DNA from: an uncultured Coriobacteriales bacterium
GTDB lineage: Bacteria; Actinomycetota; Coriobacteriia; Coriobacteriales; UMGS124
Assembly (NCBI GenBank): GCA_902464015.1
Contig: CABQHM010000001.1
Coordinates: forward strand, 91,244-155,243
DNA: 64,000 nucleotides
Direction: 5' to 3'
Made by a program: the position numbers and the translations under genes. Positions 2 to 21,091 of this stretch are shown in pieces. Position 1 is the stretch's first letter. Each line of letters opens with the position of its first letter. Under the pieces are notes generated by a model. That model made no database searches and was not told the DNA's origin. It saw only the letters and a list, made by a program, of their open reading frames with translations.

Positions 2-415
2 AGGCGCGCGCTTGAGGTGAACGCCCCCGACGCAGACGACCCTCTCGACATGCTCGCAAAGCTGGGAGGCTTCGACATCGCAGGCCTTGTGGGACTCTAT
101 CTGGGGTGCGCTGTGCAGCGCATGCCCGTCGTCATCGACGGTTTCATCAGCTCGGTCGCAGCGCTTTTGGCCTGCCGCATCGCCCCTGCGAGCCGCGCCT
201 TCATGCTTGCCTCGCATCGCTCGGCCGAACCCGCGGCGGCGGCCGTGATGCGCGAGCTCGGCCTCTCCCCCATCATCGACGCTGGCATGCGCCTGGGCGA
301 GGGCACGGGGGCCGTGTGCCTCTTTCCCCTGCTCGACATGGCGTGCGCGCTTTACCGCGACGGCATGACGTTTGACGAGTACCACATGGACGCATACCAG
401 GAGCTGGGTAAATGA
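2..415 (+). CDS. cobT: Nicotinate-nucleotide--dimethylbenzimidazole phosphoribosyltransferase CobT, C-terminal part (5' end outside the window)
   Basis: The frame is open from base 2, so the GTG at 17 is only the first start-like codon. The sequence ...GGFDIAGLVGLYLGCA..PVVIDGFISSVAALLA..ASHRSAEPAAA..MRLGEGTGA matches the conserved CobT C-terminus. Its stop overlaps the next start (ATGA at 412). Confidence 0.8.
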   Translation, partial: RRALEVNAPDADDPLDMLAKLGGFDIAGLVGLYLGCAVQRMPVVIDGFISSVAALLACRIAPASRAFMLASHRSAEPAAAAVMRELGLSPIIDAGMRLGEGTGAVCLFPLLDMACALYRDGMTFDEYHMDAYQELGK

Positions 416-1125
416 TCTGCCTGGTGTGGGGTCCCTCGGCCAGCGGCAAGAGTGCCTGGGCCGAGACGCGGGCATGCGAGCTGGCGCAGGGCGCATCGAG
501 CGGGCAGGCGACGCCTGAGGCAGCGCCCGCCAACGGCGTGCGGCCCGCCCCAGATGAGACCGAGACGGCCGCCCCCGCGCGTCTCGCCTACTTCGCAACC
601 ATGCAGCGCGGCGGGCGCGAGGCTCAGGCGCGCATCGAAAAGCATCTGGCACAGCGGGCGGGAAAAGAATTCGTTACATATGAGACGCCCGTGCTTTCTG
701 CCCTAGCAGATACCCTGGTAGATGCGAGCGCGACCGTGCTTCTCGACGATTTGGGCAACCTTGTGGCCAACGAGATGTTCGGCGCGGAGACCCCGAACGC
801 AGACATCGAAGAACTTGCCGGGCGCATATGTGCGCGTTTGCTGGACCTCGCCGGACGCGTGCGCCACCTCGTGGTGGTAGCCGACGCCGTGGGCGAGGCG
901 GGCTGGCGGGGCGGCGGGCTCACCCTTGCGTGGATCGAGTGCTGTGAGACGTGCTGCTGCCTGCTTGCAAACGCCGCCGGCGAGGTCGTGGAGGTGCGCG
1001 GGGGCATCGCGCAAACGGTGAAGTCCCTGCGTCCGGCCCGCCTCGAGCAAATTGCCACAGAGACATTCACGAACCTGCCCACACATCCCTCACCACGAAA
1101 GGCCGCCCCATGCGACACCCGATAG
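412..1125 (+). CDS. cobU: Adenosylcobinamide kinase / adenosylcobinamide-phosphate guanylyltransferase (CobU/CobP family) with a low-complexity insert
   Basis: P-loop WGPSASGKSAWAE, an ARIEKHLAQR segment that contains a His, and LLDDLGNLVANE (CobU-like DClT.W..N). It sits between cobT and cobS. The C-terminal third is divergent and overlaps the cobS start by 16 nt. Confidence 0.7.
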   Translation: MICLVWGPSASGKSAWAETRACELAQGASSGQATPEAAPANGVRPAPDETETAAPARLAYFATMQRGGREAQARIEKHLAQRAGKEFVTYETPVLSALADTLVDASATVLLDDLGNLVANEMFGAETPNADIEELAGRICARLLDLAGRVRHLVVVADAVGEAGWRGGGLTLAWIECCETCCCLLANAAGEVVEVRGGIAQTVKSLRPARLEQIATETFTNLPTHPSPRKAAPCDTR

Positions 1126-1913
1126 AGAGCCTCCGTGCCGCCGGCCGCGCCGTGGCCATGGCGTTCTCCACGTTCTCTCGCATACCCATGCCCCAGATAT
1201 GCTGGGAAAAGGCCAACATGCGCTATCTTATGTGCGCCTTTGTGCTCGTGGGCGCGGTTGTGGGGGCGGCTCAGGTCGCCTGGCTTGCGCTTGCCGGCGC
1301 CTTGGGGCTCTCAAATCTTCTGCAAGGCGTGGGATACGTGCTTGTCGCCGTGGGCGTAACGGGCGGTATCCACCTCGACGGCCTCGCTGATGTGGCCGAC
1401 GCCCTTTCGAGCCACGCCGAACCCGCTCGCAAGGTTGAGATCATGAAGGACCCACACGCCGGCGCCTTTGCCCTCATCGCCCTTGTCTGCTACCTCATGG
1501 CGCAGGTGGCTCTTGCCGGCGAAGCAGGCATCTCGGGCGTGCGCGACCTCGTGGCGCTCGGCCTCATCCCCCTTGCCTCACGCTGTACAGCCGGCCTCGC
1601 CACACTTGTGCTGCCCAGCGCAAGCAAGCACGGCATGCAGCAGTCCTTCCGCGATGCGGGACGGACAGACACACGACCGCTTATACTGCTTGGCGCCGAG
1701 GGAGCCCTTGTGGCGTGCGCCATGGTGGCGGTGCGCCCTGTGTTCGGCCTGGTCGGCGTGGTCGTATGCGCTGCCTGCGCGGCACTCGCCGCCCGGCGTG
1801 CCCGCAAAGAATTCGGTGGCTTCAACGGCGACCAGGCGGGTTGTTTGCTCCAGACATGCGAGCTTGCGCTCCTCGCCCTGCTCGTGGTGGTCCAGAAGGC
1901 AGGACTTGCATGA
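1110..1913 (+). CDS. cobS: Adenosylcobinamide-GDP ribazoletransferase (cobalamin synthase) CobS
   Basis: Polytopic membrane protein. AMAFSTFSRIPMP and GGIHLDGLADVADAL are classic CobS motifs. I chose the internal ATG at 1110; the track ORF begins at 951 with an Arg-rich stretch that overlaps cobU. Confidence 0.85.
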   Translation: MRHPIESLRAAGRAVAMAFSTFSRIPMPQICWEKANMRYLMCAFVLVGAVVGAAQVAWLALAGALGLSNLLQGVGYVLVAVGVTGGIHLDGLADVADALSSHAEPARKVEIMKDPHAGAFALIALVCYLMAQVALAGEAGISGVRDLVALGLIPLASRCTAGLATLVLPSASKHGMQQSFRDAGRTDTRPLILLGAEGALVACAMVAVRPVFGLVGVVVCAACAALAARRARKEFGGFNGDQAGCLLQTCELALLALLVVVQKAGLA

Positions 1914-2311
1914 TTCTCATTGTGGGCGGGACAAGCTCGGGCAAGGCGACCTTTGCACGCAACCTCGCAGCACAGCATGGTTGGAGCGAGGACGACATCG
2001 CCTTCAACGTGGAAGAACTGCTGTGGGGGCAAGCCAAGGGCACCGACCAGATTACCCCGGCTGACGGCGATGCTGCCGACCATACCAGCAGCAAGGCCCT
2101 ATCGGCAACGCTCGAACTGCTTGAGCGGCTCGCGGCCAAAGAAATCGTCACCTGCTCTGAGGTGGGTGCAGGCATCGTGCCGCTCGACGCGCAGGAGCGC
2201 GCCTGGCGAGAGGCCGTGGGCCGCATGTCCTGCGAGCTGGCGAACCAAGCCGACGTCGTCGTGCGCATGGTCTGCGGCATCCCCGTCGTGCTCAAGGGAG
2301 AACTTGCATGA
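1910..2311 (+). CDS. Short CobU-like P-loop protein (133 aa), a truncated paralogue of adenosylcobinamide kinase
   Basis: ILIVGGTSSGKATFA P-loop plus a CobU-like C-terminus, SEVGAGIVPLD..R.WREAVGR..ELAN.ADVVV..VCGIPVVLKG. The central His-containing segment is missing. ATGA overlap with the cobS stop. Confidence 0.55.
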   Translation: MILIVGGTSSGKATFARNLAAQHGWSEDDIAFNVEELLWGQAKGTDQITPADGDAADHTSSKALSATLELLERLAAKEIVTCSEVGAGIVPLDAQERAWREAVGRMSCELANQADVVVRMVCGIPVVLKGELA

Positions 2312-3069
2312 ATGGCGCAGGTCGCACGGGATTGGCACCCAGCGCCCATGAACCCAGCCCCCTGCGCATCGCCCTCATCAGGCACGCGCCCACGCAGGGC
2401 AACCTGGAGGGACGCTATGTGGGCGCCACTGACGAGGACCTAGACGACCAGGGCCGCGCACGTGCCAGCGAGGCGGCCCCTGCGCTCTCCGGCCTGGCGC
2501 CCCGCCATCTCTTCACGAGCGGCATGCAGCGCTGCGACGAGACGGCGGTCATCCTCTTCCCAAAGCTGGTTCCTGCGCACCTGCCCGGCTTGGCCGAGAT
2601 GCACTTTGGAGCCTTTGAGGGCAAGACGTACGCCGAGATGGGCGAAGACGCGCGCTACCAGGCCTGGGTGGACTCGGGATGCACCGCGGCATGCCCCGGC
2701 GGCGAAGCGCAGGCAGAGTTTATCGCACGCGTGCGCACGGCGTTTGAGCAGGCACTCGACGACCTCGCAGGCGTGCAAGCAGGGAGCGGGAATCAGGGCT
2801 TGCAAGGCAGCGGGCGGCACGCAAACCGCGCAAGCCCGGATGCGCACAGGGACGCTCGCGCCATGGGAGCCGTAGACGCCGCTTTTCTTGTGCATGCAGG
2901 AACCATCATGGCGGCGATGTCGGAACTGGCAGAACCCAAGCGCAGCTACTGGGACTGGAAAACGACCTATTGTGCAGGCTTCGAGGCATGGGCACGGCAC
3001 GCGGAGAATGGCTGGCGACTCACAGATGTGCGGGAGCTGCCGCGTCGCATGGAGTATCATGGCGCCTGA
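2308..3069 (+). CDS. cobC: Alpha-ribazole phosphatase-like histidine phosphatase (CobC family)
   Basis: LRIALIRHAPTQGNLEGRYVGATDEDL (RHG-type phosphoglycerate-mutase-family motif) and FGAFEGKTYAEM. Located after cobS, with an ATGA overlap to the preceding gene. Contains a Gly/Gln-rich insert. Confidence 0.7.
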   Translation: MNGAGRTGLAPSAHEPSPLRIALIRHAPTQGNLEGRYVGATDEDLDDQGRARASEAAPALSGLAPRHLFTSGMQRCDETAVILFPKLVPAHLPGLAEMHFGAFEGKTYAEMGEDARYQAWVDSGCTAACPGGEAQAEFIARVRTAFEQALDDLAGVQAGSGNQGLQGSGRHANRASPDAHRDARAMGAVDAAFLVHAGTIMAAMSELAEPKRSYWDWKTTYCAGFEAWARHAENGWRLTDVRELPRRMEYHGA

Positions 3070-3084
3070 CCGTATCAAGCGCGA

Positions 3085-3275
3085 CACCCGGGGATTGTGC
3101 CTGGGTATTGCAGGGGGAACCGGGTGAGATTCCCGGACTAGGGACATAACTGTGAGGGCACGCGCCCGTAGTCAGATTACCCTGCCCGCCTGAGCGGCCA
3201 TCCCGCAAACGGGAGGCCGCGCACCGCATCCGCCCTGTGAACCCCGAGGCAGGTGCCTGCCAGAAGGCAACGCCG
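3085..3275 (+). promoter_or_regulatory. Cobalamin (B12) riboswitch
   Basis: Core elements read directly from the sequence: CAGGGGGAACCGGGTGAGATTCCCGG (3111-3136), ATAACTGTGAGG, and the B12 box GTAGTCAGATTACCCTGCC (3168-3186). It lies in the 265-nt gap upstream of the cbiK-like gene. The outer boundaries are approximate. Confidence 0.8.
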
Positions 3276-3334
3276 AGCCACACGTCCGGCGGGCCTTGGC
3301 GTGCGCGTACTCCACGAGAGAATTGGACACGCAC

Positions 3335-4237
3335 ATGTTCGAGACCGCACTTTCCCGTCGCACCGCCATCGCCGCAGGACTCACCGCCGCCGGCGCCAGC
3401 CTCGTCGCCCAGGCGGGCATCGCCCAGGCCGACGAGGCCAAGGCCCCCAAGCCCGTCATCCTCGTGGTGAGCTTCGGCACGAGCTACAACGACTCTCGCC
3501 ACATCACCATCGGTGCCATCGAGGACGCCATCCGCGAGGCCTACCCCGACTACGACGTGCGCCGCGCCTTCACCGCGCAGATCATCATCGACAAGCTCGC
3601 CGAGCGCGACGGCATCGTCATCGACAACTTCGAGCAGGCCATGGACAAGCTCGTGGAGGAGGGCGTGCAGAAGGTCATCGTGCAGCCCACCCACCTTATG
3701 GCCGGCTATGAGTACACCGACGTCCTCAACTCCCTGCAGAGCAATTACGCCGACAAGTTCGACGCCATCGTGCTGGGCGACCCGCTGCTCACGAGCGACG
3801 AGGACTATAGCGAGGTCGTTGAGGCCATCTGCGACGCCACGGCAGAATACGACGACGGTCAGACCGCCATCTGCTTCATGGGCCACGGCACCGAGGCCGA
3901 CTCCAACGGGGACTACACGCACCTGCAGCAGGTCCTGACCGACGCGGGCCACACGAGCTACTTCGTGGGCACCGTCGAGGCAACCCCCACGTTCGACGAC
4001 GTTGTCGAGGCCGCCCAGGCCGCCGGCTTCACCAAGGCCGTACTGCGCCCGCTCATGGTCGTCGCCGGCGACCACGCCAACAACGACATGGCCGACACCG
4101 AGGACCCCGACTCCTTTGCCAGCAAGTTCATCGCCGCTGGCTTTGAGGTCGAGTGCGTCGTCGAGGGCCTGGGCCAGCTCGTGGCCATCGACGACATCTA
4201 CGTGCGCCACGTGGCCGACGCCATCAACCAGCTCTAA
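3335..4237 (+). CDS. cbiK: CbiK-family sirohydrochlorin cobaltochelatase homologue with a twin-arginine signal peptide (predicted exported)
   Basis: MFETALSRRTAIAAGLTAAGASLVAQAGIAQA/DE is a Tat motif plus h-region plus AxA cleavage site. The mature part shows VILVVSFGTSY, VIVQPTHLMAGYEY and FMGHGTE, typical of CbiK. The track ORF starts at a TTG at 3296; I use the ATG at 3335. Confidence 0.8.
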   Translation: MFETALSRRTAIAAGLTAAGASLVAQAGIAQADEAKAPKPVILVVSFGTSYNDSRHITIGAIEDAIREAYPDYDVRRAFTAQIIIDKLAERDGIVIDNFEQAMDKLVEEGVQKVIVQPTHLMAGYEYTDVLNSLQSNYADKFDAIVLGDPLLTSDEDYSEVVEAICDATAEYDDGQTAICFMGHGTEADSNGDYTHLQQVLTDAGHTSYFVGTVEATPTFDDVVEAAQAAGFTKAVLRPLMVVAGDHANNDMADTEDPDSFASKFIAAGFEVECVVEGLGQLVAIDDIYVRHVADAINQL

Positions 4238-4334: not shown

Positions 4335-5264
4335 ATGAAGCGCATCATCCAAGGACAGCACATGACCTACAGCACACATCGCAACGCCATTGCACTCGCA
4401 GCGCTCAGTCTCACACTCCTCTGCGCGCCCCTGGCTTGGAACGCAGACCAGGCCCATGCTGCCGTGCGCATCCAGCCTGCCGCGACCCAGCAGGCTGGCG
4501 ATACCGGCAGTTCCTCCGACAAAGTAGCTCAGGGTGCGGCAGCGGCCCAGCAAGACCTGCCCGACACCAAGAAGCTCACCGCCGTGAAGGCCTCCGACCT
4601 TGAGGAGGGCACCTACACGATCGAAGTCGCCTCAAGCTCGAGCATGTTCCGCATCACCGAAGCAAAGCTCACCGTTGCTGACGGAAAAATGACCTGCGAG
4701 CTCACCATGAGCGGCAAAGGCTACGGCAAGCTTTTCATGGGCACGGGCGAGCAGGCCGCACAGGCCGACGAGAAGGACTGCATCCCCTACGTGGACAATG
4801 CGGGCGGCACGCACTCCTTCACGGTGCCGGTGGAGGCGCTCAACACCGAGATCGACTGCGCCGCGTGGAGCATCAAGAAAGAGTCCTGGTACGACCGCAC
4901 CCTGGTGTTCCTCGCCGACACGCTGAAGCCTGCCGAGGCCACGCTTGCCAACGGTACCTACACGGCCAGCGTGGCGCTTGAGGGCGGCACGGGCCGCGCG
5001 AGCGTAGAGACGCCCTGCACCCTCAAGGTGGAGAAGGGTGCCATGACCGCCACCGTGGTGTGGTCGAGCCCCAACTACGACCAGATGGTCGTGAACGGCA
5101 CGCAATACCTTCCCGTGAACAAGACCGGCAACTCGACGTTCGAGATCCCCGTGGCGGCGCTCGACACGCCCCTGGCCGTGCAGGCCGAGACGTGCGCGAT
5201 GAGCGAGCCGCACATGATTGACTACACGCTCACCTTCTCCGCACCCGTCGCGCAGAAGGGCTAG
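4335..5264 (+). CDS. Secreted protein with two tandem ~105-aa beta-rich domains; family unknown (candidate tetrapyrrole-binding surface protein)
   Basis: Signal peptide ...AIALAALSLTLLCAPLAWNADQAHA/AV (alternative start at ATG 4362). There is an internal repeat: aa 85-197 and aa 200-305 align (GTYT..V, [KT]L.V..G.MT, F..PV.AL.T, D.TL.F). I recognise no enzyme motif. Confidence 0.6.
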   Translation: MKRIIQGQHMTYSTHRNAIALAALSLTLLCAPLAWNADQAHAAVRIQPAATQQAGDTGSSSDKVAQGAAAAQQDLPDTKKLTAVKASDLEEGTYTIEVASSSSMFRITEAKLTVADGKMTCELTMSGKGYGKLFMGTGEQAAQADEKDCIPYVDNAGGTHSFTVPVEALNTEIDCAAWSIKKESWYDRTLVFLADTLKPAEATLANGTYTASVALEGGTGRASVETPCTLKVEKGAMTATVVWSSPNYDQMVVNGTQYLPVNKTGNSTFEIPVAALDTPLAVQAETCAMSEPHMIDYTLTFSAPVAQKG

Positions 5265-5268
5265 ACGG

Positions 5269-6567
5269 ATGACCCAGAGCCGCGAACGCACACGCACATG
5301 GCCTGCGAAAACCCTCACACGCAGGGATTTCATCGACTTAGCCGCTGCTGCTGGCGCAGGTGCGGCGTGCGTTGCGGCTCTGGGACTTGCGGGATGCTCT
5401 TGCGCCGACGACGGCGAGGTCGCAAACGGCGCGGCGACGTCGGCGAACCAGACGAGCGGCTCTGATGGGGACAACCCTGCGAGCGCCGAGCGTCCCTCGT
5501 GGAGCAACCCCGAGGTGGGAGGCAACCTTGTGCACACGGGCAGCCTCGACCTCGCCTGGGCCACAGGCTTCACCGTGGACCTCTACGAGGGAGACCGCGC
5601 CCTTGTCTGCATCGCCGACGGCACGCGCTACCTTTTTGTGCCCGCAGGCGATGCGTCCCAGGAAATCGCCGACGACATCACGGTGCTTGAGCGGCCCCTT
5701 TCGAACATCTACCTCGCAAGCTCCTCAACGCTGTGCCTCTTTGCGGCCCTCGACGCCGTGGATTGCGTGAGCCATGTGAGCGTCACGCAGGAAACTTGTA
5801 CGGTAGAGGCGTTTACGCAGGCCATCGCCTCGGGGGACATCGTCTACGGCGGCAAGTACAGCGCACCCGACTACGAGGCGTTTCTCAACGGCGGCTGCAG
5901 GCTCGCCGTGGAGAACACGATGATCTACCACACCCCCGAGGTGCGCGAGAAGCTCATGCAGCTCGGCGTTCCCGTCATCGTTGAACAATCGAGCCTGGAG
6001 AGCGCCCCGCTCGGCAGGCTCGAATGGATCATGCTGTGGGGCGCCATGCTCGACAAGGTGTCGGCGGCCCAAGAGGTTCTCGACAGGCAAGCCCAGCTTA
6101 TCGCAGACGTTGAGGCGCGTGTGGCAGCCCAGCCGCTCGACTGCACCGTCGCCTTCTTCTACATCAACGCCAACGGCGCGGCCGTGGTGCGAAAACCCGG
6201 CGACTACGTGGCGAAGATGATTGCCATGGCGGGCGGCACCTACGCGTTTGCCCAGCTCGCAGGCGCTGACGAGAACCGTTCCTCCTCCACCACGCTCGAG
6301 ATGGAGGCGTTCTACGCCCAGGCAAAAGACGCTGACGTCATCATCTACAACTCCACGGTGGCAGGCAGGCTCAAAGGACTCGACGAGCTTGTGGCGCTCA
6401 ACCCCTTGCTCGCTGACTTCAAGGCCGTCAAGAACCGCCGGGCCTGGTGCTGCGAGCAGAACGTCTACCAGCAGATGACTGCGACGGGCGAAGTGGTGGC
6501 CGACCTGCACGAGGCGATAGCCGACACCGAACGCGATGAGCTCACCTTCTTCTTCAGGCTCACATGA
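5269..6567 (+). CDS. ABC transporter substrate-binding lipoprotein, BtuF/FecB (periplasmic binding protein type 2) family, with Tat-type signal
   Basis: TRRDFIDLAAAAGAGAACVAALGLAGC is a twin-Arg motif plus a lipobox Cys. The body resembles cluster-A binding proteins (IYLASSS, PVIVEQS, WIMLWGAML, DVIIYNS). ATG at 5269; the track start at 5218 is Arg-rich and overlaps the previous gene. Confidence 0.8.
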   Translation: MTQSRERTRTWPAKTLTRRDFIDLAAAAGAGAACVAALGLAGCSCADDGEVANGAATSANQTSGSDGDNPASAERPSWSNPEVGGNLVHTGSLDLAWATGFTVDLYEGDRALVCIADGTRYLFVPAGDASQEIADDITVLERPLSNIYLASSSTLCLFAALDAVDCVSHVSVTQETCTVEAFTQAIASGDIVYGGKYSAPDYEAFLNGGCRLAVENTMIYHTPEVREKLMQLGVPVIVEQSSLESAPLGRLEWIMLWGAMLDKVSAAQEVLDRQAQLIADVEARVAAQPLDCTVAFFYINANGAAVVRKPGDYVAKMIAMAGGTYAFAQLAGADENRSSSTTLEMEAFYAQAKDADVIIYNSTVAGRLKGLDELVALNPLLADFKAVKNRRAWCCEQNVYQQMTATGEVVADLHEAIADTERDELTFFFRLT

Positions 6568-7622
6568 CACACGAAAGGCGCACGATGAGGCACACAGACA
6601 GCTGGCGAGACAGCAAGCGGCGATTCGTCGTGACCATGGTGCTGGCAAGCCTGGTGCTGGTGGCGCTTCTGTGCGCGAACCTGTGCATCGGGTCGGTGGG
6701 CATGAGCCCTGCCGAGCTGCTGGGAGCGCTCGCAGCAGGCCCGGGGGCAAGCGGCCTTGAAGCGAGCGTCATCTGGCAGATACGCCTGCCCCGCGCCGTG
6801 AGTGCCGCCATTCTCGGCGGGGCGCTTGCGTGCTCGGGCTTCTTGCTGCAGACCTTCTTCAACAACCCCATCGCGAGCCCCTACATCCTGGGCATCTCGG
6901 CAGGCGCCAAGTGCGCACTGGCCGCCGTGACGATCTGCGTCATCGGAGCAGGCGGGGCGCTTGCGTCCTGGCAGGTGGTGGGCGCGGCGTTTGTGGGCTC
7001 GCTGGCGGCAACCGCCCTGGTACTGGGCTTGTCAACAAAGATTCGCTCTATGAGCATGCTCATTGTCGCCGGCGTGATGGCAGGCTATGTCTTCAACGCG
7101 ATCACCGACTTCCTCGTGACCTTTGCAAGCGACCAGAACATCGTGAACCTGCACAACTGGGCCCTGGGCAGCTTCTCGGGGGCTACCTGGAGCCAGGTGG
7201 GCGTTGAGGCAGCCGTGTGCGCCGCGGGCTTCGCGGCCTCGATGGCGCTGGCAAAACCTATGGCGGCTTTCCAGCTCGGCGAGGGCTACGCCAAGAGCGT
7301 CGGCGTCAACGTGCGGCTCTTCCGCGCGGCGCTCATCGCCGTGGCAAGCCTTTTGGCCGCCTGCGTCACCGCTTATGCCGGCCCCGTGGGATTCGTGGGC
7401 ATCGCGGTGCCCTACCTGGCGCGTACGGCGCTTGCCTCCTCGAAGCCCGTGCGCGCAGTGCCGGCGTGCCTGGTGATGGGGGCTGCCTTCTGCCTTCTGT
7501 GCGACCTGGTGGCGCGCACGCTCTTCTCCCCCACCGAGCTCAACCTGGGCACGGTCACAGCCGTGTTCGGCGCACCGGTGGTCATCACGCTCATGATGCG
7601 CCGCACCCGGGAGGGACGTTAA
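6564..7622 (+). CDS. FecCD/BtuC-family ABC transporter permease
   Basis: About 10 hydrophobic helices. IRLPRAVSAAILGGALACSGFLLQ, NPIASPYILGISAGA and GPVGFVGIAVPYLAR are FecCD signatures. ATGA overlap with the binding-protein gene. Confidence 0.85.
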   Translation: MTHERRTMRHTDSWRDSKRRFVVTMVLASLVLVALLCANLCIGSVGMSPAELLGALAAGPGASGLEASVIWQIRLPRAVSAAILGGALACSGFLLQTFFNNPIASPYILGISAGAKCALAAVTICVIGAGGALASWQVVGAAFVGSLAATALVLGLSTKIRSMSMLIVAGVMAGYVFNAITDFLVTFASDQNIVNLHNWALGSFSGATWSQVGVEAAVCAAGFAASMALAKPMAAFQLGEGYAKSVGVNVRLFRAALIAVASLLAACVTAYAGPVGFVGIAVPYLARTALASSKPVRAVPACLVMGAAFCLLCDLVARTLFSPTELNLGTVTAVFGAPVVITLMMRRTREGR

Positions 7623-8846
7623 ATGATCAGGCAGATGGCGTTGCAGACGTACGGCCTCAATGTGGGATACGGGCGACGCTGCGTGGTGGGAGGCGTCACG
7701 CTCGACCTTGTGCCCGGCGAAGTGCTCTGCCTCGTGGGGCCCAACGGCTCGGGCAAGTCGACCCTGCTCAAGACAATCGCCGGCCAGATTGCGCCCCTAG
7801 GCGGCACCGTGCTGCTCGATGGGCGCGACGCGAGCTCCTTCAAGGCAGACGAGCTGGCCCGCAGCCTCTCGGTGATGCTCACGGGGCGCATGGCCTGCGA
7901 GATGCTGAGCTGCCTAGACGTGGTGGAGACGGGCCGCATCCCCTACACGAACGCCCTGGGCACACTGCGCGAGGCCGACCGCGAAGCGGTGAAGGGTGCC
8001 ATGCAGGCCGTGGGCGCCTGGGAGCTGCGCGAGCGCGACTTCATGCAGATAAGCGACGGCCAACGCCAGCGCGTGCTGCTGGCCCGCGCCATCGCCCAGG
8101 ACGCACCCGTGATGGCGCTCGACGAACCCACCTCCTACCTCGACATTCGCCATCAGCTGGAGCTGCTTGCCTGTGTGCGCGACCTTGCGCGCACGCGCGG
8201 GTGGACCTGCCTGCTGTCGCTGCACGAGCTCGCCTTGGCCCAGAAGGTTGCCGACCGGGTGGCCTGCGTGTGCGAGGGCGGCATATATGCGCAAGGTGCC
8301 CCCGAGGACGTGCTTGACGCGCCCACGGTGGCCCATGTGTTCGACTTGGGGCGCGCGGCTTGGAGCGCGGCGCTGGGATGCGTGGAGGATGCGCCGCTCG
8401 AAAGCGCGGCCCGCGTGTTTGTGCTTGGAGGCGCGGGCACAGCGGCAGCCTCGATGCGTGCGCTGCGCCGCGAGGGCGTGGGCTTCTGCGCAGGCGTGCT
8501 GCCTGAAAACGACGTGGATTGTGTGCTTGCACATAGGCTCACGGCCCACGTGGTGAGCACGTCGGCCTTTACTCTGCCCGGCAAGGAGACGATGGCGCTG
8601 GCCCGTGAGATGCTTGCGGGTTGCGAGGCACTTGTGGACTGCCTGAGCTCGATGGATGCGGGGCCTCTGGAGGCCTGCCGACGCGATATGCTCGCGTGCG
8701 CACAAGCGGCAGGGCTTCCCGTCCATGGGAGCGCAGTACAGTATTTGGAAGCGTTGCGCAATCAAAAAGCACACGAAGATGCAGGCAGAGAGGTATGTAT
8801 TTGCTGCGATGCCACGGCGGCGCGAGCAGAGGCGGTGAGGCCATGA
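7623..8846 (+). CDS. ABC transporter ATP-binding protein (BtuD/FecE-like) with a ~145-aa C-terminal extra domain
   Basis: Walker A GPNGSGKST, signature ISDGQRQR, Walker B VMALDEPT, H-loop LSLHE. Residues ~262-407 (VFVLGGAGTAAASMRALRREGVGF..) lie beyond a normal ATPase. The stop overlaps the cbiD start (ATGA at 8843). Confidence 0.85.
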   Translation: MIRQMALQTYGLNVGYGRRCVVGGVTLDLVPGEVLCLVGPNGSGKSTLLKTIAGQIAPLGGTVLLDGRDASSFKADELARSLSVMLTGRMACEMLSCLDVVETGRIPYTNALGTLREADREAVKGAMQAVGAWELRERDFMQISDGQRQRVLLARAIAQDAPVMALDEPTSYLDIRHQLELLACVRDLARTRGWTCLLSLHELALAQKVADRVACVCEGGIYAQGAPEDVLDAPTVAHVFDLGRAAWSAALGCVEDAPLESAARVFVLGGAGTAAASMRALRREGVGFCAGVLPENDVDCVLAHRLTAHVVSTSAFTLPGKETMALAREMLAGCEALVDCLSSMDAGPLEACRRDMLACAQAAGLPVHGSAVQYLEALRNQKAHEDAGREVCICCDATAARAEAVRP

Positions 8847-10057
8847 CGCTCGAGCACTATGTCGAGGTCGGCAAGAAGCGCCTGCGCTGCGGCTACACCA
8901 CGGGCACCTGCGCGGCCGCGGCGGCCCAGGCCTGCGGGCAGGCGCTTCTTGCGGGGAGCTTTCCCCACTCCCTGCGCATCGACACCCCGGCGGGCGTTGC
9001 TGTGGTAGTGGAACCCGAAGAGATGCATCGGGGCACCGATGCACAGGGCACCCCCTGGTCAAGCTGCGGGGTGCGCAAGGACGCAGGCGACGACGCGGAT
9101 GCCACCGACGACGCGCTGGTCGTGGTACGCGTGAGCCTCACGGACACTCCGGGCACAACAATTGAGGGTGGTGCCGGCGTGGGGCGCGTGACGCGCGCCG
9201 GGCTCGACCAGCCCGTGGGAGCCGCGGCCATCAACTCGGTACCCCGCGCCATGATTGCCTCCGAGCTCGAGCGGATTGCCCGCGAGCATGGCTGGCATGG
9301 CGGCTTTGCGGTGGAGGTGTCGGTGCCCGGCGGAGAAGAAATCGCACGCAAGACCTTCAACCCGCGCCTGGGCATTGAAGGGGGCATTTCGATTCTGGGA
9401 ACGTCGGGCATCGTGCGGCCCATGAGCGAGGAGGCCCTCGTCGAGTCCATCCGCCTGGAGATGCGCATGAGACGTGCGCAGGGACTGCGCGACCTTGTGC
9501 TCGTGCCGGGAAACTACGGCCAGGACTGGGCGCAAGACAGGGAAGGCGTCGACCCCACACATATCGTGAGCTGCTCGAACTTCCTGGGCGAGGCGCTTGA
9601 TTACGCTGGTGTGCTCGGCTTTGAGACGCTTGTGCTCGTGGGGCATATGGGCAAGCTCGCCAAGGTCGCAACGGGCGCCATGAACACCCACTCGCGCGTG
9701 GCCGACGGGCGCGCCGAGGCGTTCGCGGCACATGCAGCCCTGGCAGGTGCAGGGCGCGACGACATCGCCCGCCTTATGGAGTGCGCCACGACCGACGAGG
9801 CGCTTGAGGTGCTCGCGGGGCACGGCCCAGGCGAGACGGCCGTCTCAGATGAGCGAGAGTGCCTGCTCGCCACAACGCTGCGCGGCCTCACGCAGGCAAT
9901 TGCGTGGCACGTAAGCCGGCGAGGAGACCCCGTACGCTGCGAGGTCGTGGTGTTCTCGAAGGCATGGGGCGAGTTGGGACGATCGGGTGGGGCGCAGGAA
10001 CTCTTGGACAGGCACCGCGTGCGCGGCACGGCGGCAAGGAAGGAAGGCCGGATATGA
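8843..10057 (+). CDS. cbiD: Cobalt-precorrin-5B (C1)-methyltransferase CbiD
   Basis: LRCGYTTGTCAAAAA, GVGRVTRAGL, GISILGTSGIVRPMS and LVPGNYG are CbiD hallmarks. The internal ATG at 8843 was chosen. Confidence 0.9.
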   Translation: MTLEHYVEVGKKRLRCGYTTGTCAAAAAQACGQALLAGSFPHSLRIDTPAGVAVVVEPEEMHRGTDAQGTPWSSCGVRKDAGDDADATDDALVVVRVSLTDTPGTTIEGGAGVGRVTRAGLDQPVGAAAINSVPRAMIASELERIAREHGWHGGFAVEVSVPGGEEIARKTFNPRLGIEGGISILGTSGIVRPMSEEALVESIRLEMRMRRAQGLRDLVLVPGNYGQDWAQDREGVDPTHIVSCSNFLGEALDYAGVLGFETLVLVGHMGKLAKVATGAMNTHSRVADGRAEAFAAHAALAGAGRDDIARLMECATTDEALEVLAGHGPGETAVSDERECLLATTLRGLTQAIAWHVSRRGDPVRCEVVVFSKAWGELGRSGGAQELLDRHRVRGTAARKEGRI

Positions 10058-13599: not shown

Positions 13600-14837
13600 G
13601 GGTCGACATCGTAGGCGCAGGACCCGCAGGTCGGGAAGGCATGACCCTTGGCGGCATGCAAGCACTCGAAGAGGCGCAGCTCGTCATCGGAGCCGCCCGC
13701 GTCTTGCAAGAGCTCGCCCTGGAGACAGATGCCCGCCAAGTGGCCCTGGTGAGTCCCTCGGACATCGCCGAGGTGCTGGCCGGCCAAGCCCAAGCAGGCA
13801 TCGAGCGCGCGGCCGTGGCAGTCTCGGGCGACGTGGGGCTCTACAGCCTCGCCGCCCCCCTGCGTGCCACTCTGGCAAGCATGCCGAACATCGAGCTCCA
13901 CGAGCACCCGGGCGTCTCCTCCCTGCAATGCCTGTGCGCGAGGCTCCATATGCCCTGGCAGGATGCCCATGTGCTCTCGGCTCACGGGCGGGCGTGCGAT
14001 GTGGCCGGAGCCGCCCAATGCCACCGGCTCACCTTCGCGCTCACGGGCGGGGCGATTCGCGCCCACAACGTGTGCGCCGACCTCACAAGCCGCGGCATGG
14101 GCGACCTCACCGTGCACGTGGGCGAAAACCTCTGCAGCCCCCGCGAGCGCGTGCTGAGCGGCACGGCCACCGAACTCGCCCGCGAGACGTTTGAAGACCT
14201 TGCCTGTATGCTCGTTGAGAATCCCTCGCCTGTCGAGCGCGCCTGGCAGGCACCAGGCCTGCGCGACACCGACCTCACGCGCGGCGACGCTCCCATGACA
14301 AAGGAAGAGGTGCGCCAGGCCATCGTGTGCAAGCTGCGCCTCGTGGCCGACGCCTGCGTGTGGGACATCGGCGCAGGTACGGGCTCGGTGAGCGTGGAAT
14401 GCGGCCTGGCGGCATGCGCCGGGCGCGTGTACGCCGTGGAGGAAGTACCCGAGCGCGTCGACCTCATCGCCGAGAACGCCCGCAAGCTCGGGGCGCTCAA
14501 CGTCTTCACCGTCGAGGGGAAGGCGCCCGCAGCGCTTGACGGCCTGCCCGCCCCCACGCACGCCTTCATCGGGGGCTCGGCAGGCTCGTTTGCCCAGATC
14601 GCAGACGCGGTGCTCGCCGCCAACCCTGAGGCGCGCATGGTGGCAAGCGCCGTCACCATCGAGACGCTCTACCAGGCGCTTCAGGCATTTCAGGCACACG
14701 ACATGGCCAACGTCGAGGTCGCGCAGCTCGGTGTGGCGAAGGCGCGCGATCTCGGCGGATTGCACCTCATGGCCGCCCAGAACCCCGTGTGGATCGTAAG
14801 CGGCCAAGGCGTGCGAAACGAGGGTGCCTCATGCTGA
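13596..14837 (+). CDS. cbiET: Fused cobalt-precorrin-7 C5-methyltransferase / cobalt-precorrin-6B C15-methyltransferase (decarboxylating) CbiE-CbiT
   Basis: N-terminal tetrapyrrole-methylase fold (VDIVGAGPAG..SGDVGLYS). C-terminal SAM-MTase (MTKEEVRQAIVCKLRL..VWDIGAGTGSVSVE). ATGA overlap with cbiJ. Confidence 0.85.
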   Translation: MRVDIVGAGPAGREGMTLGGMQALEEAQLVIGAARVLQELALETDARQVALVSPSDIAEVLAGQAQAGIERAAVAVSGDVGLYSLAAPLRATLASMPNIELHEHPGVSSLQCLCARLHMPWQDAHVLSAHGRACDVAGAAQCHRLTFALTGGAIRAHNVCADLTSRGMGDLTVHVGENLCSPRERVLSGTATELARETFEDLACMLVENPSPVERAWQAPGLRDTDLTRGDAPMTKEEVRQAIVCKLRLVADACVWDIGAGTGSVSVECGLAACAGRVYAVEEVPERVDLIAENARKLGALNVFTVEGKAPAALDGLPAPTHAFIGGSAGSFAQIADAVLAANPEARMVASAVTIETLYQALQAFQAHDMANVEVAQLGVAKARDLGGLHLMAAQNPVWIVSGQGVRNEGASC

Positions 14838-16237
14838 CACCGCTGCCGCGCATCCTCATCACGGCGCCCAAAAGCGGCGCGGGCAAGACGACACTCACCT
14901 GCGCGCTCATGGGGGCCCTGCGCGAGCGTGGCCTGCGCATGCTGGCATGCAAGTGCGGCCCCGACTACGTGGACCCCACCTTCCATGAACGGCTGGGCGC
15001 CGTGCGCCGCCTCAACCTCGACGCGTTCTTTCAGTCCGAGACCCTCATGCGCGACCTTCTCGCCCACGCCGGGCGCGATTGTGACATCGTCTGCATCGAG
15101 GGCGCCATGGGATATTACGACGGCGTGGGGACAACAACCAAGGCCAGTGCCTGGGACGTTGCCTGCATCACCGACACGCCCGCCTTGCTTGTACTCGACG
15201 CACGCGGGGCATGTGCCTCGCTTGCCGCACAGGTGCTCGGCTTTGTCGCCATGCGCACGCCCAGTCATGTGGCGGGCGTCGTGCTCGACCACGCGAGCGC
15301 CGCACTTGCCGACAAGGTGGCGCCCGTCATTGAGCGGGAGTGCGGCGTGCCCGTGCTGGGCTATCTTCCCCACGACGAGGCGATTGCGCTTCCCAGCAGG
15401 CATCTCGGCCTCGTTTTGGCCCAGGACCTGCCTGACCTCGACGAGAAGCTCGCCCGCCTGGCCTCGCTGGCGCAGGATTGCCTCGACGTCGACGCGATCC
15501 TCGCGCTTGCCCAGGCGGCCCCGCAGCTCAGCTCCAGCGGCGCATGGCCCCTTCCGCCCTGCCTGGATGCACACGAATCCGCCCCCGTTATCGCCGTTGC
15601 CCGCGACGAGGCATTTTGCTTCTACTACGCCGAGGAGCTCGAGCTTTTGGAGGACCTGGGGGCCAAGCTTGCCTTCTTTTCTCCCCTACACGACGAGAAC
15701 CTGCCCGAGGGAGCAAGCGGGCTCTTTTTGGGCGGAGGCTACCCCGAGCTGCACGTGCGCGAGCTTTCCTCCAATACCGCCATGCGCGAGGCCGTGCGCG
15801 CGGCACTGGCACAGGGCATGCCTGCGATTGCAGAGTGCGGAGGGTTCCTCTACCTGCTCGAACGCCTGACCGACGACGATGGCACAGCCTGGCCGCTCGT
15901 GGGCGCATGCCCAGGCGGGGCCGAGCGCAAGAAGCATGGGCGTTTTGGCTACACCGAGCTTGAGACACAGGGCGCAGGGCTTCTTGGACCCACCGGCACC
16001 GCACTGCGCGGGCACGAGTTCCATCGCTGGGAGGCCGATTACACCGACGCTGACGTGCTCGTTCGCAAACCCGAAAGCGAGCGCTTTTGGCATGCAGGGC
16101 ACCACACCCCCAGCCTCTATGCGGGATTTCCCCATCTCTACCTGCCTGGATCTGTCGACGTTGCACGCAGGTTTGTGCATGCGTGTGCCGCATGGGGCGC
16201 GCAGAGAAAGGACGCGACGTGTACCTGCACCTTGTAA
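14831..16237 (+). CDS. cbiA: Cobyrinate a,c-diamide synthase CbiA
   Basis: RILITAPKSGAGKTTLT, CKCGPDYVDP, IEGAMGYYDG and GATase CGGFLYL..GHEFH. The internal ATG at 14831 overlaps the cbiET stop. Confidence 0.9.
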   Translation: MLTPLPRILITAPKSGAGKTTLTCALMGALRERGLRMLACKCGPDYVDPTFHERLGAVRRLNLDAFFQSETLMRDLLAHAGRDCDIVCIEGAMGYYDGVGTTTKASAWDVACITDTPALLVLDARGACASLAAQVLGFVAMRTPSHVAGVVLDHASAALADKVAPVIERECGVPVLGYLPHDEAIALPSRHLGLVLAQDLPDLDEKLARLASLAQDCLDVDAILALAQAAPQLSSSGAWPLPPCLDAHESAPVIAVARDEAFCFYYAEELELLEDLGAKLAFFSPLHDENLPEGASGLFLGGGYPELHVRELSSNTAMREAVRAALAQGMPAIAECGGFLYLLERLTDDDGTAWPLVGACPGGAERKKHGRFGYTELETQGAGLLGPTGTALRGHEFHRWEADYTDADVLVRKPESERFWHAGHHTPSLYAGFPHLYLPGSVDVARRFVHACAAWGAQRKDATCTCTL

Positions 16238-17205
16238 GCCTGGCCGCAGGCTATGTAGCCGACCTCGCTCTGGGCGACCCACACGGCTGGCCCCACCCCG
16301 TGCGCTGGATGGGCTCCCTCATCGCTCGGCTCGAGCCTGCCCTGCGCCGTACCTTCCCCGACACACCGCGCGGCAAGCGGGCTGCGGGCGCAGCGCTTGT
16401 GTGCCTGGTCACGGGCATCAGCGGTGGTGCGTGCGCGGCCGCGCTCGCCCTGGCGGGAGCCGTCAGTCCCTATCTATCCTGCGCGGTAGGGGCGCTTGTA
16501 AGTTACTGGATGCTTGCGACCAAATCGCTCAAGGACGAGAGCATGGCCGTGCTCGACGCCCTGGAACACGCGGGCCTGCCCGAGGCGCGCATGCGCGTCT
16601 CCATGATCGTAGGCCGCGACACGGCAGCGCTCACCGAAGAGGGCGTCACGAAGGCCGCGGTGGAGACGGTAGCCGAAAACGCCTCGGACGGCGTCATCGC
16701 TCCCCTTTTCTACCTGGCGCTGTTGGGACCAGTGGGCGGGGTCGTCTACAAGGCGATCAACACCATGGACTCGATGGTGGGTTACAAAAACGACCGCTAC
16801 CTCGACTTCGGCCGCGCAGCCGCCAAGCTCGACGACGCGGTGAACTTTATCCCCGCTCGCCTGGCCGGCGCTCTCATGTGCCTGGCCGCCCCCCTTGCAG
16901 GCTTTGACGGCAAGCGCGCCTGGCGCACCTTTCGGCGCGACCGGCTCGCCCACACCTCGCCCAACTCCGCCCACACCGAGGCGGCCTGCGCGGGAGCCCT
17001 GGGCATACAGCTGGCCGGACCCAACTACTATGGCGGCGTGCTGGTGGAGAAACCCACGCTGGGCGAGGCATGCCGTGCGGTGGAACCCGCCGACATCCGC
17101 CGAGCAAACAGGCTGCTCTATGCCACAAGCCTGCTGGCACTGCCCGTATGCGCAGGACTCGGGACTCTTGTGTGGACGCTTGTGAGAGCGGCGGCGGGAC
17201 TATGA
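16192..17205 (+). CDS. cbiB: Adenosylcobinamide-phosphate synthase CbiB
   Basis: DLALGDPHGWPHPVRWMG, VGRDT..L, ENASDGVIAPLFY and SPNSAHTEAA. The start is uncertain: ATG 16192 or GTG 16219, and both overlap the cbiA 3' end. Confidence 0.85.
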   Translation: MGRAEKGRDVYLHLVSLAAGYVADLALGDPHGWPHPVRWMGSLIARLEPALRRTFPDTPRGKRAAGAALVCLVTGISGGACAAALALAGAVSPYLSCAVGALVSYWMLATKSLKDESMAVLDALEHAGLPEARMRVSMIVGRDTAALTEEGVTKAAVETVAENASDGVIAPLFYLALLGPVGGVVYKAINTMDSMVGYKNDRYLDFGRAAAKLDDAVNFIPARLAGALMCLAAPLAGFDGKRAWRTFRRDRLAHTSPNSAHTEAACAGALGIQLAGPNYYGGVLVEKPTLGEACRAVEPADIRRANRLLYATSLLALPVCAGLGTLVWTLVRAAAGL

Positions 17206-19861: not shown

Positions 19862-21091
19862 CTAGATGCTTTCCATCTCCCCCAACACGGCGTAGTACCA
19901 CTCCTCGCCGGGGTCGCAGTAGGTGTTGGCAGCATCCATGGTGAGCTTGCCACCGTACATGTAGCCGAGGTACTCAACGTGAGCCCAGATGGCCTCTTCC
20001 CAGCTTGAGAAGCTGTGGCCCATCCAGCCCCAGGCGTTGTACGGCCTGAAGCAGTACGCGCCCATCGTCGACTCGATGCAGGAAATGGCCGGCGACCAGC
20101 GGGGATCGACACCGTAGGCAAGGGCAGCCTGGGCAAAAACGCGACCGTATCCCGACAGCGTGGAGCCGGCGAGGTAAGCGTCGATGCGGGCAGCCCATGC
20201 GTCGACAGTGGAATCGCCGGAGGTGGAGTTGTCGGGCTGGGAGGGTTCAGGCTCGGGCTCGGGAGTCGGGGCAGGTTCCGACCCGTTCGACTCAGAGGAA
20301 GACCCCTGGTTGGCATTTTGGTTCGAGTTGATGATCTCGTCGGCGCGGTCCTCGTCCACGCGCTCGGTGGTTCCGTCGGGCTTCGTCTCGATGAAGATGG
20401 TCTCGCCTGTGGACGGATCAGTCTCGGTCGTCACCGTGGACTGATCGCGCGACGCGGCAACCTGTGCAGCAAGCGCGGCCTGCCTGGCAGCCTCTTCCTC
20501 GGCAACGCGCGCCTCAGCCTCATCGGCAGCTGCCTGCACCTGGGCAAGCGCCTCAGCAGCCTCGTCCTCGGCCTGCTGGGCCTCGACGAGCAGGCTCTCT
20601 AGGTTCGCCTGTTCCTGCTCAAGTTCATCTTGGAGCTCGAGCAAGCCCTCAAGCTGGCCAGACGTGTAGGTTTGCACCGTATTGAGATAGGTCAGCGTGG
20701 CAACAAAGTTCTCAAAGCCATCCGAAGACAGAATGACGTTCAAAAGGCCGGCGGAATTCTGCGAGAACTTGTACTGCGTGACCATGGCCGAAGCGGCCTT
20801 TTCCTGCGCACCGGGTATACGGGCCTCGATGTCGGCAATGCGCGCACGGCAATCTTCGACATCAGCCTGAGCCTGAGCGGTGGCCTCCATGGCCTCGTTG
20901 TATGCCTGACTCTTTGCAGAGACCTCTTGCCGCAGCTGAGCCAGGGTCTCCCTGGAGTCGGCATGGGCGTCACCAATGGTCGGGCCCAGCGCCCAAGCAC
21001 CGCCAACCGTTATTGCAAGCCCCAGGGCCACGGCCGCAATTGCGCGGCCATACGGCCTAGAGCAGGCTTTGCTTTCATCTGAAAGCGCCAT
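19862..21091 (-). CDS. Membrane-anchored/secreted coiled-coil protein with a C-terminal lysozyme-like (glucosaminidase/SLT-type) domain; putative peptidoglycan hydrolase (PcsB/CwlO-style architecture)
   Basis: ATG at 21091 preceded by AGGAGG. N-terminal TM/signal AIAAVALGLAITVGGAWA. About 200 aa of heptad-like A/E/Q-rich sequence. C-terminus GVDPRWSPAISCIESTMG..NAWGW has an E-S catalytic-type motif. Confidence 0.5.
   Translation of the reverse strand: MALSDESKACSRPYGRAIAAVALGLAITVGGAWALGPTIGDAHADSRETLAQLRQEVSAKSQAYNEAMEATAQAQADVEDCRARIADIEARIPGAQEKAASAMVTQYKFSQNSAGLLNVILSSDGFENFVATLTYLNTVQTYTSGQLEGLLELQDELEQEQANLESLLVEAQQAEDEAAEALAQVQAAADEAEARVAEEEAARQAALAAQVAASRDQSTVTTETDPSTGETIFIETKPDGTTERVDEDRADEIINSNQNANQGSSSESNGSEPAPTPEPEPEPSQPDNSTSGDSTVDAWAARIDAYLAGSTLSGYGRVFAQAALAYGVDPRWSPAISCIESTMGAYCFRPYNAWGWMGHSFSSWEEAIWAHVEYLGYMYGGKLTMDAANTYCDPGEEWYYAVLGEMESI

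Follow-up and report, generated by a model that had tools for sequence, protein, structure and literature searches.

The stretch of DNA analysed here, called the window below, comprises 64,000 nucleotides of contig CABQHM010000001.1 from an uncultured Coriobacteriales bacterium, and the gene in question is an open reading frame (ORF) at 4335..5264 on the + strand (309 aa), which encodes a secreted protein with two tandem domains of the NEAT fold, hereafter NEATx2. The gene belongs to a five-gene cassette encoding an exported class II chelatase of the CbiK type, NEATx2 itself, a class-III substrate-binding lipoprotein, a FecCD-type permease and an ABC ATPase. Along the + strand, a partial cobT, cobU, cobS, a second cobU fragment and cobC are followed by a cobalamin-riboswitch-like element and the five cassette genes, and then by cbiD, a methylase gene, cbiG, another methylase gene, cbiJ, cbiET, cbiA, cobQ and cbiC. 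In the window, as in its relatives, the cassette lies inside the cob operon, and the gene order of the relative represented by loci L085 and L086 (71% identity) is identical to that of the window.

The NEATx2 gene and its product

The G+C content at third codon positions of the ORF (0.85) is like that of the other real genes in the window, which has an overall G+C content of 65%; an antisense ORF at 4632-5573 was rejected as a shadow of the high-GC coding strand. The start codon is more likely to be the ATG at 4362 than position 4335, since an AAGGA lies 6 nt upstream of this ATG and the homologues begin at the equivalent Met. The N-terminus, MTYSTHRN-AIALAALSLTLLCAPLAW-NADQAHA/AV, reads as a Sec-type signal peptide (4362..4460, +; aa 10-42), cleavage of which would occur at AHA/AV, judging by the AxA motif. 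The signal is followed by an Ala/Gln-rich linker of ~42 residues (4461..4586, +; aa 43-84), which is variable in the alignment and predicted to be disordered: the AlphaFold per-residue confidence score (pLDDT) is below 50 for residues 1-54, and runs from below 50 to about 66 over the linker, while it exceeds 90 in both domains.

The two halves of the remaining protein are homologous to each other. A single BLASTP comparison of aa 85-197 with aa 200-309 gave 30% identity at an E-value of 8e-7, and half-vs-half profiles, each built from 22 homologues, were aligned by hhalign with a probability of 97.9% (E 4e-13); on these scores the internal repeat exceeds chance by far. The original prediction, which was made from the letters of the DNA, had described two diverged repeats of this kind behind a signal peptide and a Gln/Ala/Ser linker. 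The repeats, of ~105-115 aa, are borne out by both comparisons and the linker by its low pLDDT, and the signal peptide can again be read from the sequence.

Both domains belong to the NEAT superfamily

Domain 1 occupies 4587..4931 (+; aa 85-199) and domain 2 occupies 4941..5249 (+; aa 203-305). The model of the protein follows the strand order of NEAT domains, i.e. beta1, the lip, beta2-beta4, a short helix and beta6-beta8, and its eight-stranded immunoglobulin-like beta-sandwich can be superposed on solved NEAT domains. A Foldseek search of the Protein Data Bank (PDB) with the AlphaFold model, which the original prediction had suggested as a check, returned NEAT domains almost exclusively: the 11 matches at E<=1e-3 were all NEAT proteins, among them IsdH and IsdB (both with haemoglobin), IsdX1, Hbp2-N2 and IsdX2-N5, with a probability of 1.0, and the target-normalised TM-scores of the single-domain matches were 0.65-0.69 (IsdX1 0.65, Hbp2-N2 0.67, IsdX2-N5 0.68). 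Furthermore, the Pfam NEAT model (PF05031) matches the window protein in two stretches with a marginal score of 34.1 bits (E 4.3e-8), just over the cutoff of 32.8, the better stretch being aa 106-175 in domain 1. The same family is precomputed on many NEATx2 homologues, reaching 55 bits in P0123, and it spans domain 2 nearly end to end in the homologues P0127, P0167 and P0211. As the NEAT model covers domain 2 in homologues and has its better stretch in domain 1 in the window protein, both domains are members of the NEAT superfamily. Sequence searches by themselves bring NEAT barely within reach: a search of the PDB with the whole protein found nothing at E<=10, and of the two domain profiles, that of domain 1 had IsdX2-N5 as its best match (E 0.3) and that of domain 2 matched nothing meaningful.

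The original prediction could name no family for the protein, which is wrong at the level of fold and superfamily; its guess at a NEAT-like beta-sandwich, on the other hand, was right, and can be put more firmly than it had been. The Ser/Met-rich lip that it had pointed out, SSSSMF (4632-4649, +) in domain 1, aligns with the lip EISMMNQY of IsdX2-N5, which would place it at the lip of the NEAT haem pocket, in haem NEATs a 3-10 segment with Ser and Met that covers the ligand; domain 2 has GGSGR at the corresponding position, read as GGTGR near 4983-4997 (+) in the window. The other families that it had thought of, Shp and FMN_bind, are not the best matches: FMN_bind has no Pfam match, and no flavoprotein is named among the 50 Foldseek matches listed. 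PplA (NF041941) was likewise rejected, with 18.3 bits against a cutoff of 325 and a match that lies inside the linker, as were Big_13, DUF4397, PEGA and the BapA-type adhesin, the scores of which are far under their cutoffs; a match to an unrelated family such as an adhesin, which the original prediction had named as a possible outcome, was thus found at sub-threshold scores only.

Residues that set the domains apart from haem NEATs

The YxxxY motif of the haem NEATs, the first Tyr of which ligates the haem iron, is absent from beta8 of both domains. In domain 1, beta8 reads SWYDRTLVF (4884-4910, +), where Y186 aligns to Y132, the iron ligand of IsdC, and may correspond to the first Tyr, an invariant Leu taking the place of the second. 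Beta8 of domain 2 reads PHMIDYTLTF, the YxxxY positions are Ile and Leu, and H293 and Y297 (HxxxY) lie two residues earlier on the same strand face. This register is tentative because hhalign aligned each domain with IsdC, IsdX1 and IsdX2-N5 at probabilities of just 27-52%; the reference sequences were checked against the PDB, IsdC being 100% identical to 2k78/2o6p.

Conservation was counted in 348 domain-1 and 285 domain-2 copies extracted from 282 family members. Domain 1 keeps M104 (92%), F105 (97%), Y130 (95%), G136 (99%), W185 (96%), Y186 (85%) and R188 (80%), and domain 2 keeps G217, G218 and G220 (98-100%), S245 (99%), Y248 (96%), T286 (99%), M289 (99%), H293 (82%) and Y297 (99%). M135 and M251 are each retained by 90% or more of 46 close homologues. 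The original prediction had singled out Met residues at similar positions in the two repeats; M104, M135 and M251 are indeed conserved, while the Met of its GAMT motif is not conserved among the homologues. The conserved residues fall in the lip after beta1, in beta4 and in the beta7-beta8 hairpin, which together form the ligand pocket of NEAT domains. The haem pocket of NEAT domains is largely hydrophobic. In both domains of NEATx2, by contrast, the conserved positions are rich in small polar residues (SSSSMF, GGSGR, WSSPNYD, TxAMSxPH; in the window, WSSPNYD lies at 5061-5081 and the hairpin of domain 2, TCAMSEPHMIDY, at 5190-5225, both +), and these would seem to set the protein apart. As far as can be judged from the residues, NEATx2 is not a canonical haem NEAT, and each of its domains has its own near-invariant residue set.

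These observations bear on a different reading of the locus, namely that the cassette is an Isd-type haem uptake system, in which haem bound by NEATx2 would be passed to a binding protein of the IsdE type, the exported CbiK would remove or exchange the metal, as proposed for IhtB/FetB of P. gingivalis, and control by a B12 riboswitch would be secondary cross-regulation between tetrapyrrole pathways. We consider this unlikely. It has in its favour that all the solved structural neighbours are NEATs that bind haem or haemoglobin, and that domain 1 keeps both the lip Met M104 and, in the low-confidence alignment to IsdC, the beta8 Tyr Y186, a pair that we take to recall the Met/Tyr ligation of IsdB-N2; the lack of YxxxY in either domain speaks against it. 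Further evidence on this point comes from the partner proteins and from the regulation of the cassette.

Partner proteins and gene fusions

The chelatase gene immediately upstream of NEATx2 (3296..4237, +; start probably the ATG at 3335) matches Pfam CbiK at 2.5e-80. Its product carries, as read from the sequence, a twin-arginine-like signal at the N-terminus (SRRTAIAAG...AQA/DE), and its homologues in Firmicutes have lipoprotein signals. Residues H197, E228 and H260 align with the catalytic H145, E175 and H207 of S. enterica CbiK, and by motif counts this triad is kept in 73-77 of 78 homologues; the closest solved structures are 1qgo, FetB (9b86) and the periplasmic CbiK of D. vulgaris (2xvx). 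In 20 of the 78 exported CbiK homologues, a conserved acidic motif, ENY[DE]TGDA[SA]LDNxRNQDEIGExELL, lies between the lipobox and the chelatase domain (among others at loci L006, L012-L014, L022, L023, L048, L050, L055, L056, L067, L073 and L079); it is absent from the window CbiK, and could be a metal-binding or docking segment.

Downstream of NEATx2 lies the gene of the substrate-binding lipoprotein (5218..6567, +; Peripla_BP_2, Pfam 1.1e-26; start probably the ATG at 5269), which has a TRRDFI twin-arginine motif and an LAGC lipobox, so that all three extracytoplasmic proteins bear signals for export, the partners having lipoprotein or twin-arginine signals. When a profile of 22 cassette binding proteins was searched against the PDB, the best match was Lmo2184 (5joq; 5.8e-8), IsdE followed at 0.47, and BtuF gave no match at E<=1. 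Next come the FecCD-type permease (6564..7622, +; Pfam 4.7e-76), which is equally close to BtuC (1e-41), FhuB (2e-41) and HmuU (4e-38) in the PDB, and the ATPase (7623..8846, +; ABC_tran, Pfam 2.8e-27), which has a C-terminal extension of ~150 aa. In homologues of this ATPase the C-terminus is assigned to a recent Pfam family, PF27219 (MJ0874), and the C-terminus of the window ATPase gave no match when scanned alone. The position that the original prediction had given to NEATx2, between an exported CbiK and a BtuF-like protein, therefore holds as far as CbiK and a Peripla_BP_2 protein are its neighbours, and fails, at the level of sequence, for the likeness to BtuF. The affinity of the binding protein to Lmo2184, and faintly to IsdE, is a further point for haem as the ligand, and so is the binding of haem or metalloporphyrins by FetB and D. 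vulgaris CbiK-P.

In a number of homologues the three extracytoplasmic proteins are joined to one another in gene order. CbiK is fused to NEATx2 in P0052, P0167, P0211, P0257 and an ORF of L054, and NEATx2 is fused to the binding protein in P0127, P0134, P0140, P0173, P0250 and an ORF of L075, while ~10 further proteins of 640-760 aa show the latter pattern. Single fusions in metagenome assemblies can be artefacts; these are unlikely to be so, because they recur in many separate clusters of 50% identity.

Conservation of the cassette

The genomic context was examined at the 80 best of at least 592 species-representative loci, with 43-97% identity to the window protein, and within flanks of 7-10 kb; because these 80 loci are the closest relatives, the following figures describe the core of the family. 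The CbiK gene lies immediately upstream of NEATx2 in 78 of the 80 loci, one of the two exceptions being a locus at a contig end, and the genes of the binding protein, permease and ATPase lie downstream wherever the contig continues, with few exceptions. Genes of cob/cbi biosynthesis are found at most 7 kb from the cassette in 32 of the 80 loci, and no second CbiK gene lies within 7 kb at any of them, including those with de novo cbi neighbours.

Some loci depart from this arrangement. At L087 (8963-10927, the same place as L019; a metagenome-assembled genome of Bacillota), a riboswitch-controlled CbiK-NEATx2 pair, both proteins with lipoprotein signals, stands at the start of a de novo cbi operon (cbiD, methylases, cbiG, cbiJ, cbiA, cbiC), and no binding protein, permease or ATPase gene follows. 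L002, from a Firmicute genome, has a second Peripla_BP_2/FecCD/ABC set under a riboswitch of its own at 14255-16864, 5 kb downstream of the cassette, which suggests that its two importers carry different cargo. A typical Firmicute-type cassette was also found at L079, on a contig of 7.7 kb (CAVIPV010000132.1) binned as 'Prevotella sp.', probably a binning error rather than an occurrence in Bacteroidota.

The chelatase raises the further alternative that the cassette serves extracellular cobalt capture. The exported CbiK would then insert Co2+ into a tetrapyrrole presented by NEATx2, and the product, once imported, would be a source of cobalt, or even of cobalt-sirohydrochlorin, for anaerobic B12 synthesis. 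The preserved H/E/H triad of the window CbiK and its homologues is in keeping with such an activity, as are the Co and Mn chelatase activity of the surface homologue FetB on porphyrin, the lack of a second CbiK within 7 kb even beside de novo cbi genes, and the transporter-less operon at L087; moreover, type-II ABC importers carry chelates, not free ions, and cobalt uptake is commonly under B12 riboswitches. The scheme is nevertheless without precedent and needs an extracellular tetrapyrrole acceptor, for which no exporter or source is evident, and a cytoplasmic CbiX/CbiK and cobalt transporters could lie beyond the flanks of 7-10 kb. We think it quite improbable.

The NEATx2 family

The search for NEATx2 homologues found 4212 proteins at E<=1e-3. 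A HMMER search of 1.84 billion cluster representatives (50% identity) found 2607 matches at E<=1e-3, with 977 of them reaching E<=1e-30, and a scan of one genome per species confirmed at least 592 NEATx2 loci, so that the family definition proposed in the original prediction leads to a large family with conserved genomic neighbours. Most of the hosts belong to the Clostridia (Lachnospiraceae, Oscillospiraceae, Christensenellaceae, Peptococcaceae, Ruminococcus, Blautia, Roseburia), and some are Coriobacteriia, such as the uncultured Coriobacteriaceae isolate UMGS1780, whose NEATx2 (L005) is 97% identical to the window protein. In databases the homologues are named 'hypothetical protein', 'uncharacterized protein', 'predicted small lipoprotein YifL' or 'major membrane immunogen', the last of which is misleading.

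The order of the domains is fixed: 226 of 282 proteins have one domain 1 followed by one domain 2, and 33 have extra copies of domain 1 before a final domain 2, with lengths of up to 2538 aa. Giant surface proteins such as P0121 (1965 aa), P0122, P0125 and P0228 (2538 aa) carry up to at least seven copies of domain 1, and nearly all of them terminate in domain 2. Among Firmicute homologues a lipobox Cys stands at the position of the signal peptide in 58 of 80 cases, so that most of these relatives would be anchored to lipid, and some others (P0037) have a C-terminal membrane helix in its place. The window protein has neither, and is for this reason probably released into the wall zone.

Such an architecture could also suit a protein-binding function, in which one or both domains would bind a host or microbial B12 carrier, or NEATx2 would act as a structural or adhesive surface spacer. 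The analogy with the haemoglobin-binding domains IsdH-N1/N2 and IsdB-N1 would agree with this, as would the best Foldseek matches, to the two-domain forms of IsdH and IsdB bound to haemoglobin, the multiplication of domain 1 in the giant proteins, and the weak sub-threshold matches to Big_13, PEGA and adhesin-type families. Those adhesin-type scores are, however, far under their cutoffs, NEATx2 is tightly linked in its operon to an importer and fused to the binding protein, and near-invariant small polar, Met, Tyr and His residues occupy the NEAT pocket positions in hundreds of copies, for which a small conserved ligand is a better fit than diverse protein partners. We rate a protein-binding role as very improbable.

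Cobalamin riboswitches, and a probable compact variant, upstream of the cassette

Riboswitches were sought with Rfam and with R1, a covariance model built from 13 strong Rfam-detected riboswitches, the E-values of which are rough. By R1, a cobalamin riboswitch lies upstream of the cassette on the same strand in 69 of the 80 loci, and Rfam gave 82-117 bits for such an element at 10 of the 11 loci tested, and separately 103 bits at L001. Of the 11 loci without an R1 match, four are at contig ends and four others lie beside cob/cbi genes, as the window does. There is no CbiK gene at L024, and the riboswitch of this locus stands immediately before NEATx2.

The element of the window, at 3065..3202 (+), scores 19.3 bits with Rfam RF00174 over the whole model (E 0.039), against a gathering score of 31.5, and 15.2 bits with R1 over the core (E 3e-4); compared with RF00174, ~60 nt of the peripheral region are missing. 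Its core (GGGAACCGGGUGAGAUUCCCGG ... ACUGU ... AGUCAGAUUACCCUGCC) is nearly identical in L085, where a similar compact element stands at the same position (8741-8900; 17.6 bits, again below the Rfam gathering score), i.e. ~100 nt are near-identical in two Coriobacteriia whose flanking proteins are just ~71% identical. We thus regard the element as a probable compact cobalamin-riboswitch variant, which may represent a reduced form overlooked by standard annotation. The riboswitch operon spoken of in the original prediction is accordingly well seen in the relatives and weakly in the window, where the score is below gathering; the linkage to B12 genes in other genomes, on which that prediction had made its own case depend, was found in the form of both CbiK and the riboswitch.

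The regulation also weighs against haem as the cargo, in that a cobalamin riboswitch precedes 69 of the 80 loci and cob/cbi genes adjoin 32 of them. In addition, no gene of a haem oxygenase or an iron regulator was found in the four loci annotated with Pfam (L001, L002, L085, L087), and the hosts are mostly strict gut anaerobes, for which little haem demand is known.

Proposed role of NEATx2

Fold, export signals, synteny, fusions and regulation together lead us to consider NEATx2 the surface part of a tetrapyrrole-type uptake cassette induced by B12 scarcity. The capture or hand-off role that had been suggested for the protein is strongly supported by this context, namely the constant neighbourhood of CbiK (78/80), the riboswitch (69/80) and the fusions to both partners, and that the cargo is a tetrapyrrole is indicated by a second tetrapyrrole-binding fold, NEAT itself, being fused to both CbiK and the binding protein. 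Our preferred reading, to which we incline with some reserve, is that NEATx2 is an extracytoplasmic receptor for tetrapyrrole capture and relay, the most likely ligand of which is a corrinoid or another cobalt tetrapyrrole; a ligand of this kind is favoured by the riboswitch and the nearby cob/cbi genes, as well as by the missing YxxxY and the polar character of the conserved positions. Accordingly worded, NEATx2 is a strong candidate for a surface receptor of B12-like cobalt tetrapyrroles in Gram-positive gut bacteria. More tentatively, and with somewhat less confidence than would be needed to prefer it, we suggest that these may be the first domains of the NEAT fold to have corrinoids or other cobalt tetrapyrroles, instead of haem, as their ligands, and a Gram-positive counterpart of the Bacteroides BtuG/H/J relay.

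The mechanism that we envisage is as follows. The five-gene cassette would be repressed by vitamin B12, and at low intracellular B12 the riboswitch would permit its expression. The N-terminal domain-1 module, present in up to at least seven copies in some relatives, would capture an extracellular cobalt tetrapyrrole, the likeliest being a corrinoid (for example a cobamide, cobinamide or a cobyric-acid-like precursor). The cargo would then move to the C-terminal domain 2, which adjoins the binding protein in the fusions, and the binding protein would hand it to the type-II ABC importer. We infer this direction, from outer capture to delivery as in Isd systems, from the fixed order of domain 1, domain 2 and binding protein. 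The exported CbiK, located in the same compartment, would act as a second tetrapyrrole binder or as a processor, and NEATx2 may work with this surface chelatase in editing or loading the metal outside the cell.

Several points weigh against a corrinoid as the cargo. The NEAT pocket is sized for a planar porphyrin, and a complete cobamide is bulkier; the nearest solved relatives of the binding protein belong to haem/iron systems (Lmo2184, and faintly IsdE), not to BtuF; the riboswitch of the window is sub-threshold; and the separate riboswitch-controlled BtuFCD-like set at L002 implies that the cassette may carry some other cargo. Also, FetB and D. vulgaris CbiK-P, the exported CbiK homologues of solved structure, are binders of haem or metalloporphyrins (Lobo 2008, as cited elsewhere).

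Comparison with known systems

The NEAT haem receptors and haemophores (IsdC, IsdA, IsdH and IsdB of S. aureus, IsdX1 and IsdX2 of B. anthracis, Hbp2 of Listeria) have in common with NEATx2 the beta-sandwich fold, probably the lip after beta1, the tandem or multi-domain build and the extracytoplasmic location, and they likewise adjoin a class-III binding protein, a permease and an ATPase in a relay. NEATx2 differs from the solved NEATs in sequence (just 8-19% identity) and from the Isd proteins in its anchor, which is a lipobox, a C-terminal membrane helix or none in place of LPXTG. Likewise, the cassette is distinguished from Isd loci by an exported CbiK as partner and by control through a cobalamin riboswitch in place of an iron/haem context. 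The features by which an Isd-type locus is recognised, i.e. an LPXTG/NPQTN anchor, the haem oxygenase IsdG/I and iron regulation, were not found in the cassette, although Fur/DtxR boxes were not searched for; no haem-oxygenase or sortase Pfam family occurs among the neighbours at L001, L002, L085 and L087.

Exported chelatases encoded together with an importer have been described in Gram-negative bacteria without a NEAT protein. The Iht locus of P. gingivalis (IhtA, IhtB/FetB, IhtCDE) combines, like the cassette, an extracytoplasmic CbiK-type chelatase with a binding protein, a permease and an ATPase, and has a TonB-dependent receptor in the place of NEATx2; FetB, which is part of it, is a porphyrin-binding protein with Co- and Mn-inserting activity on a porphyrin analogue. 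D. vulgaris has a periplasmic CbiK with btuCDF, the cbiK-cbiL and btuCDF genes of Desulfovibrio being regulated by a B12 riboswitch element. The cargo of these systems is itself unsettled, haem, iron and Mn-porphyrin having been considered. The BtuFCD importer shares with the related cassettes the upstream cobalamin riboswitch, while the cassette binding protein is not recognisably related to BtuF.

The functional analogy for our preferred reading is the Bacteroides relay (BtuG, BtuH, BtuJ/DUF4465 and BtuK, with BtuB), which consists of surface lipoproteins encoded in B12-riboswitch transport loci, as NEATx2 is, that capture corrinoids and hand them to the transporter. Binding of B12 has been demonstrated there, and the folds (a beta-propeller, DUF4465 and others) are unrelated to NEAT; in NEATx2 there is no Pfam or NCBIfam match to BtuG, BtuH or BtuJ (DUF4465). 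According to a review of the Bacteroides cobamide relay from September 2026, which mentions neither NEAT nor chelatases, capture outside the cell by Gram-positive Firmicutes 'remains entirely uncharacterized'. In the openly accessible literature we found no paper that links NEAT domains with cobalamin, riboswitches or CbiK, and the openly accessible papers in which 'NEAT domain' and 'vitamin B12' occur together concern haem systems. The NEAT fold and the logic of the relay are known already, whereas the regulon, the partner and the residues of the ligand site are, as far as this literature shows, new, and so, probably, is the ligand.

Competition for B12 shapes the gut community, and the cassette offers a concrete and widespread candidate for the capture of B12 and its analogues at the surface of Gram-positive gut bacteria, found in at least 592 species. 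If the proposal is true, a corrinoid-binding NEAT relay is present in hundreds of gut Clostridia and Coriobacteriia. The cassette also bears on the older puzzle of why B12 regulons should pair the gene of an exported cobaltochelatase homologue with those of an ABC importer (D. vulgaris CbiK-P, P. gingivalis FetB). Should the ligand be haem, the family would still be a large unrecognised NEAT branch in commensal anaerobes under an unexpected control by B12.

Other features of the window

Two ORFs of the CobU family, 412-1125 (+) and 1715-2311 (+), flank cobS, the second of which matches just the C-terminal part of the model (positions 97-167); CobU is also split in L085 and L086, into genes of 202 aa and 114 aa. 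Three further ORFs, 19862-21160 (-), 24529-25098 (-) and 45356-46501 (-), show gene-like codon bias and have no Pfam family at E<=1e-5. Finally, a raiA RNA (RF03072) lies at 31514-31776 (-), with a score of 155 bits, well over the gathering score.

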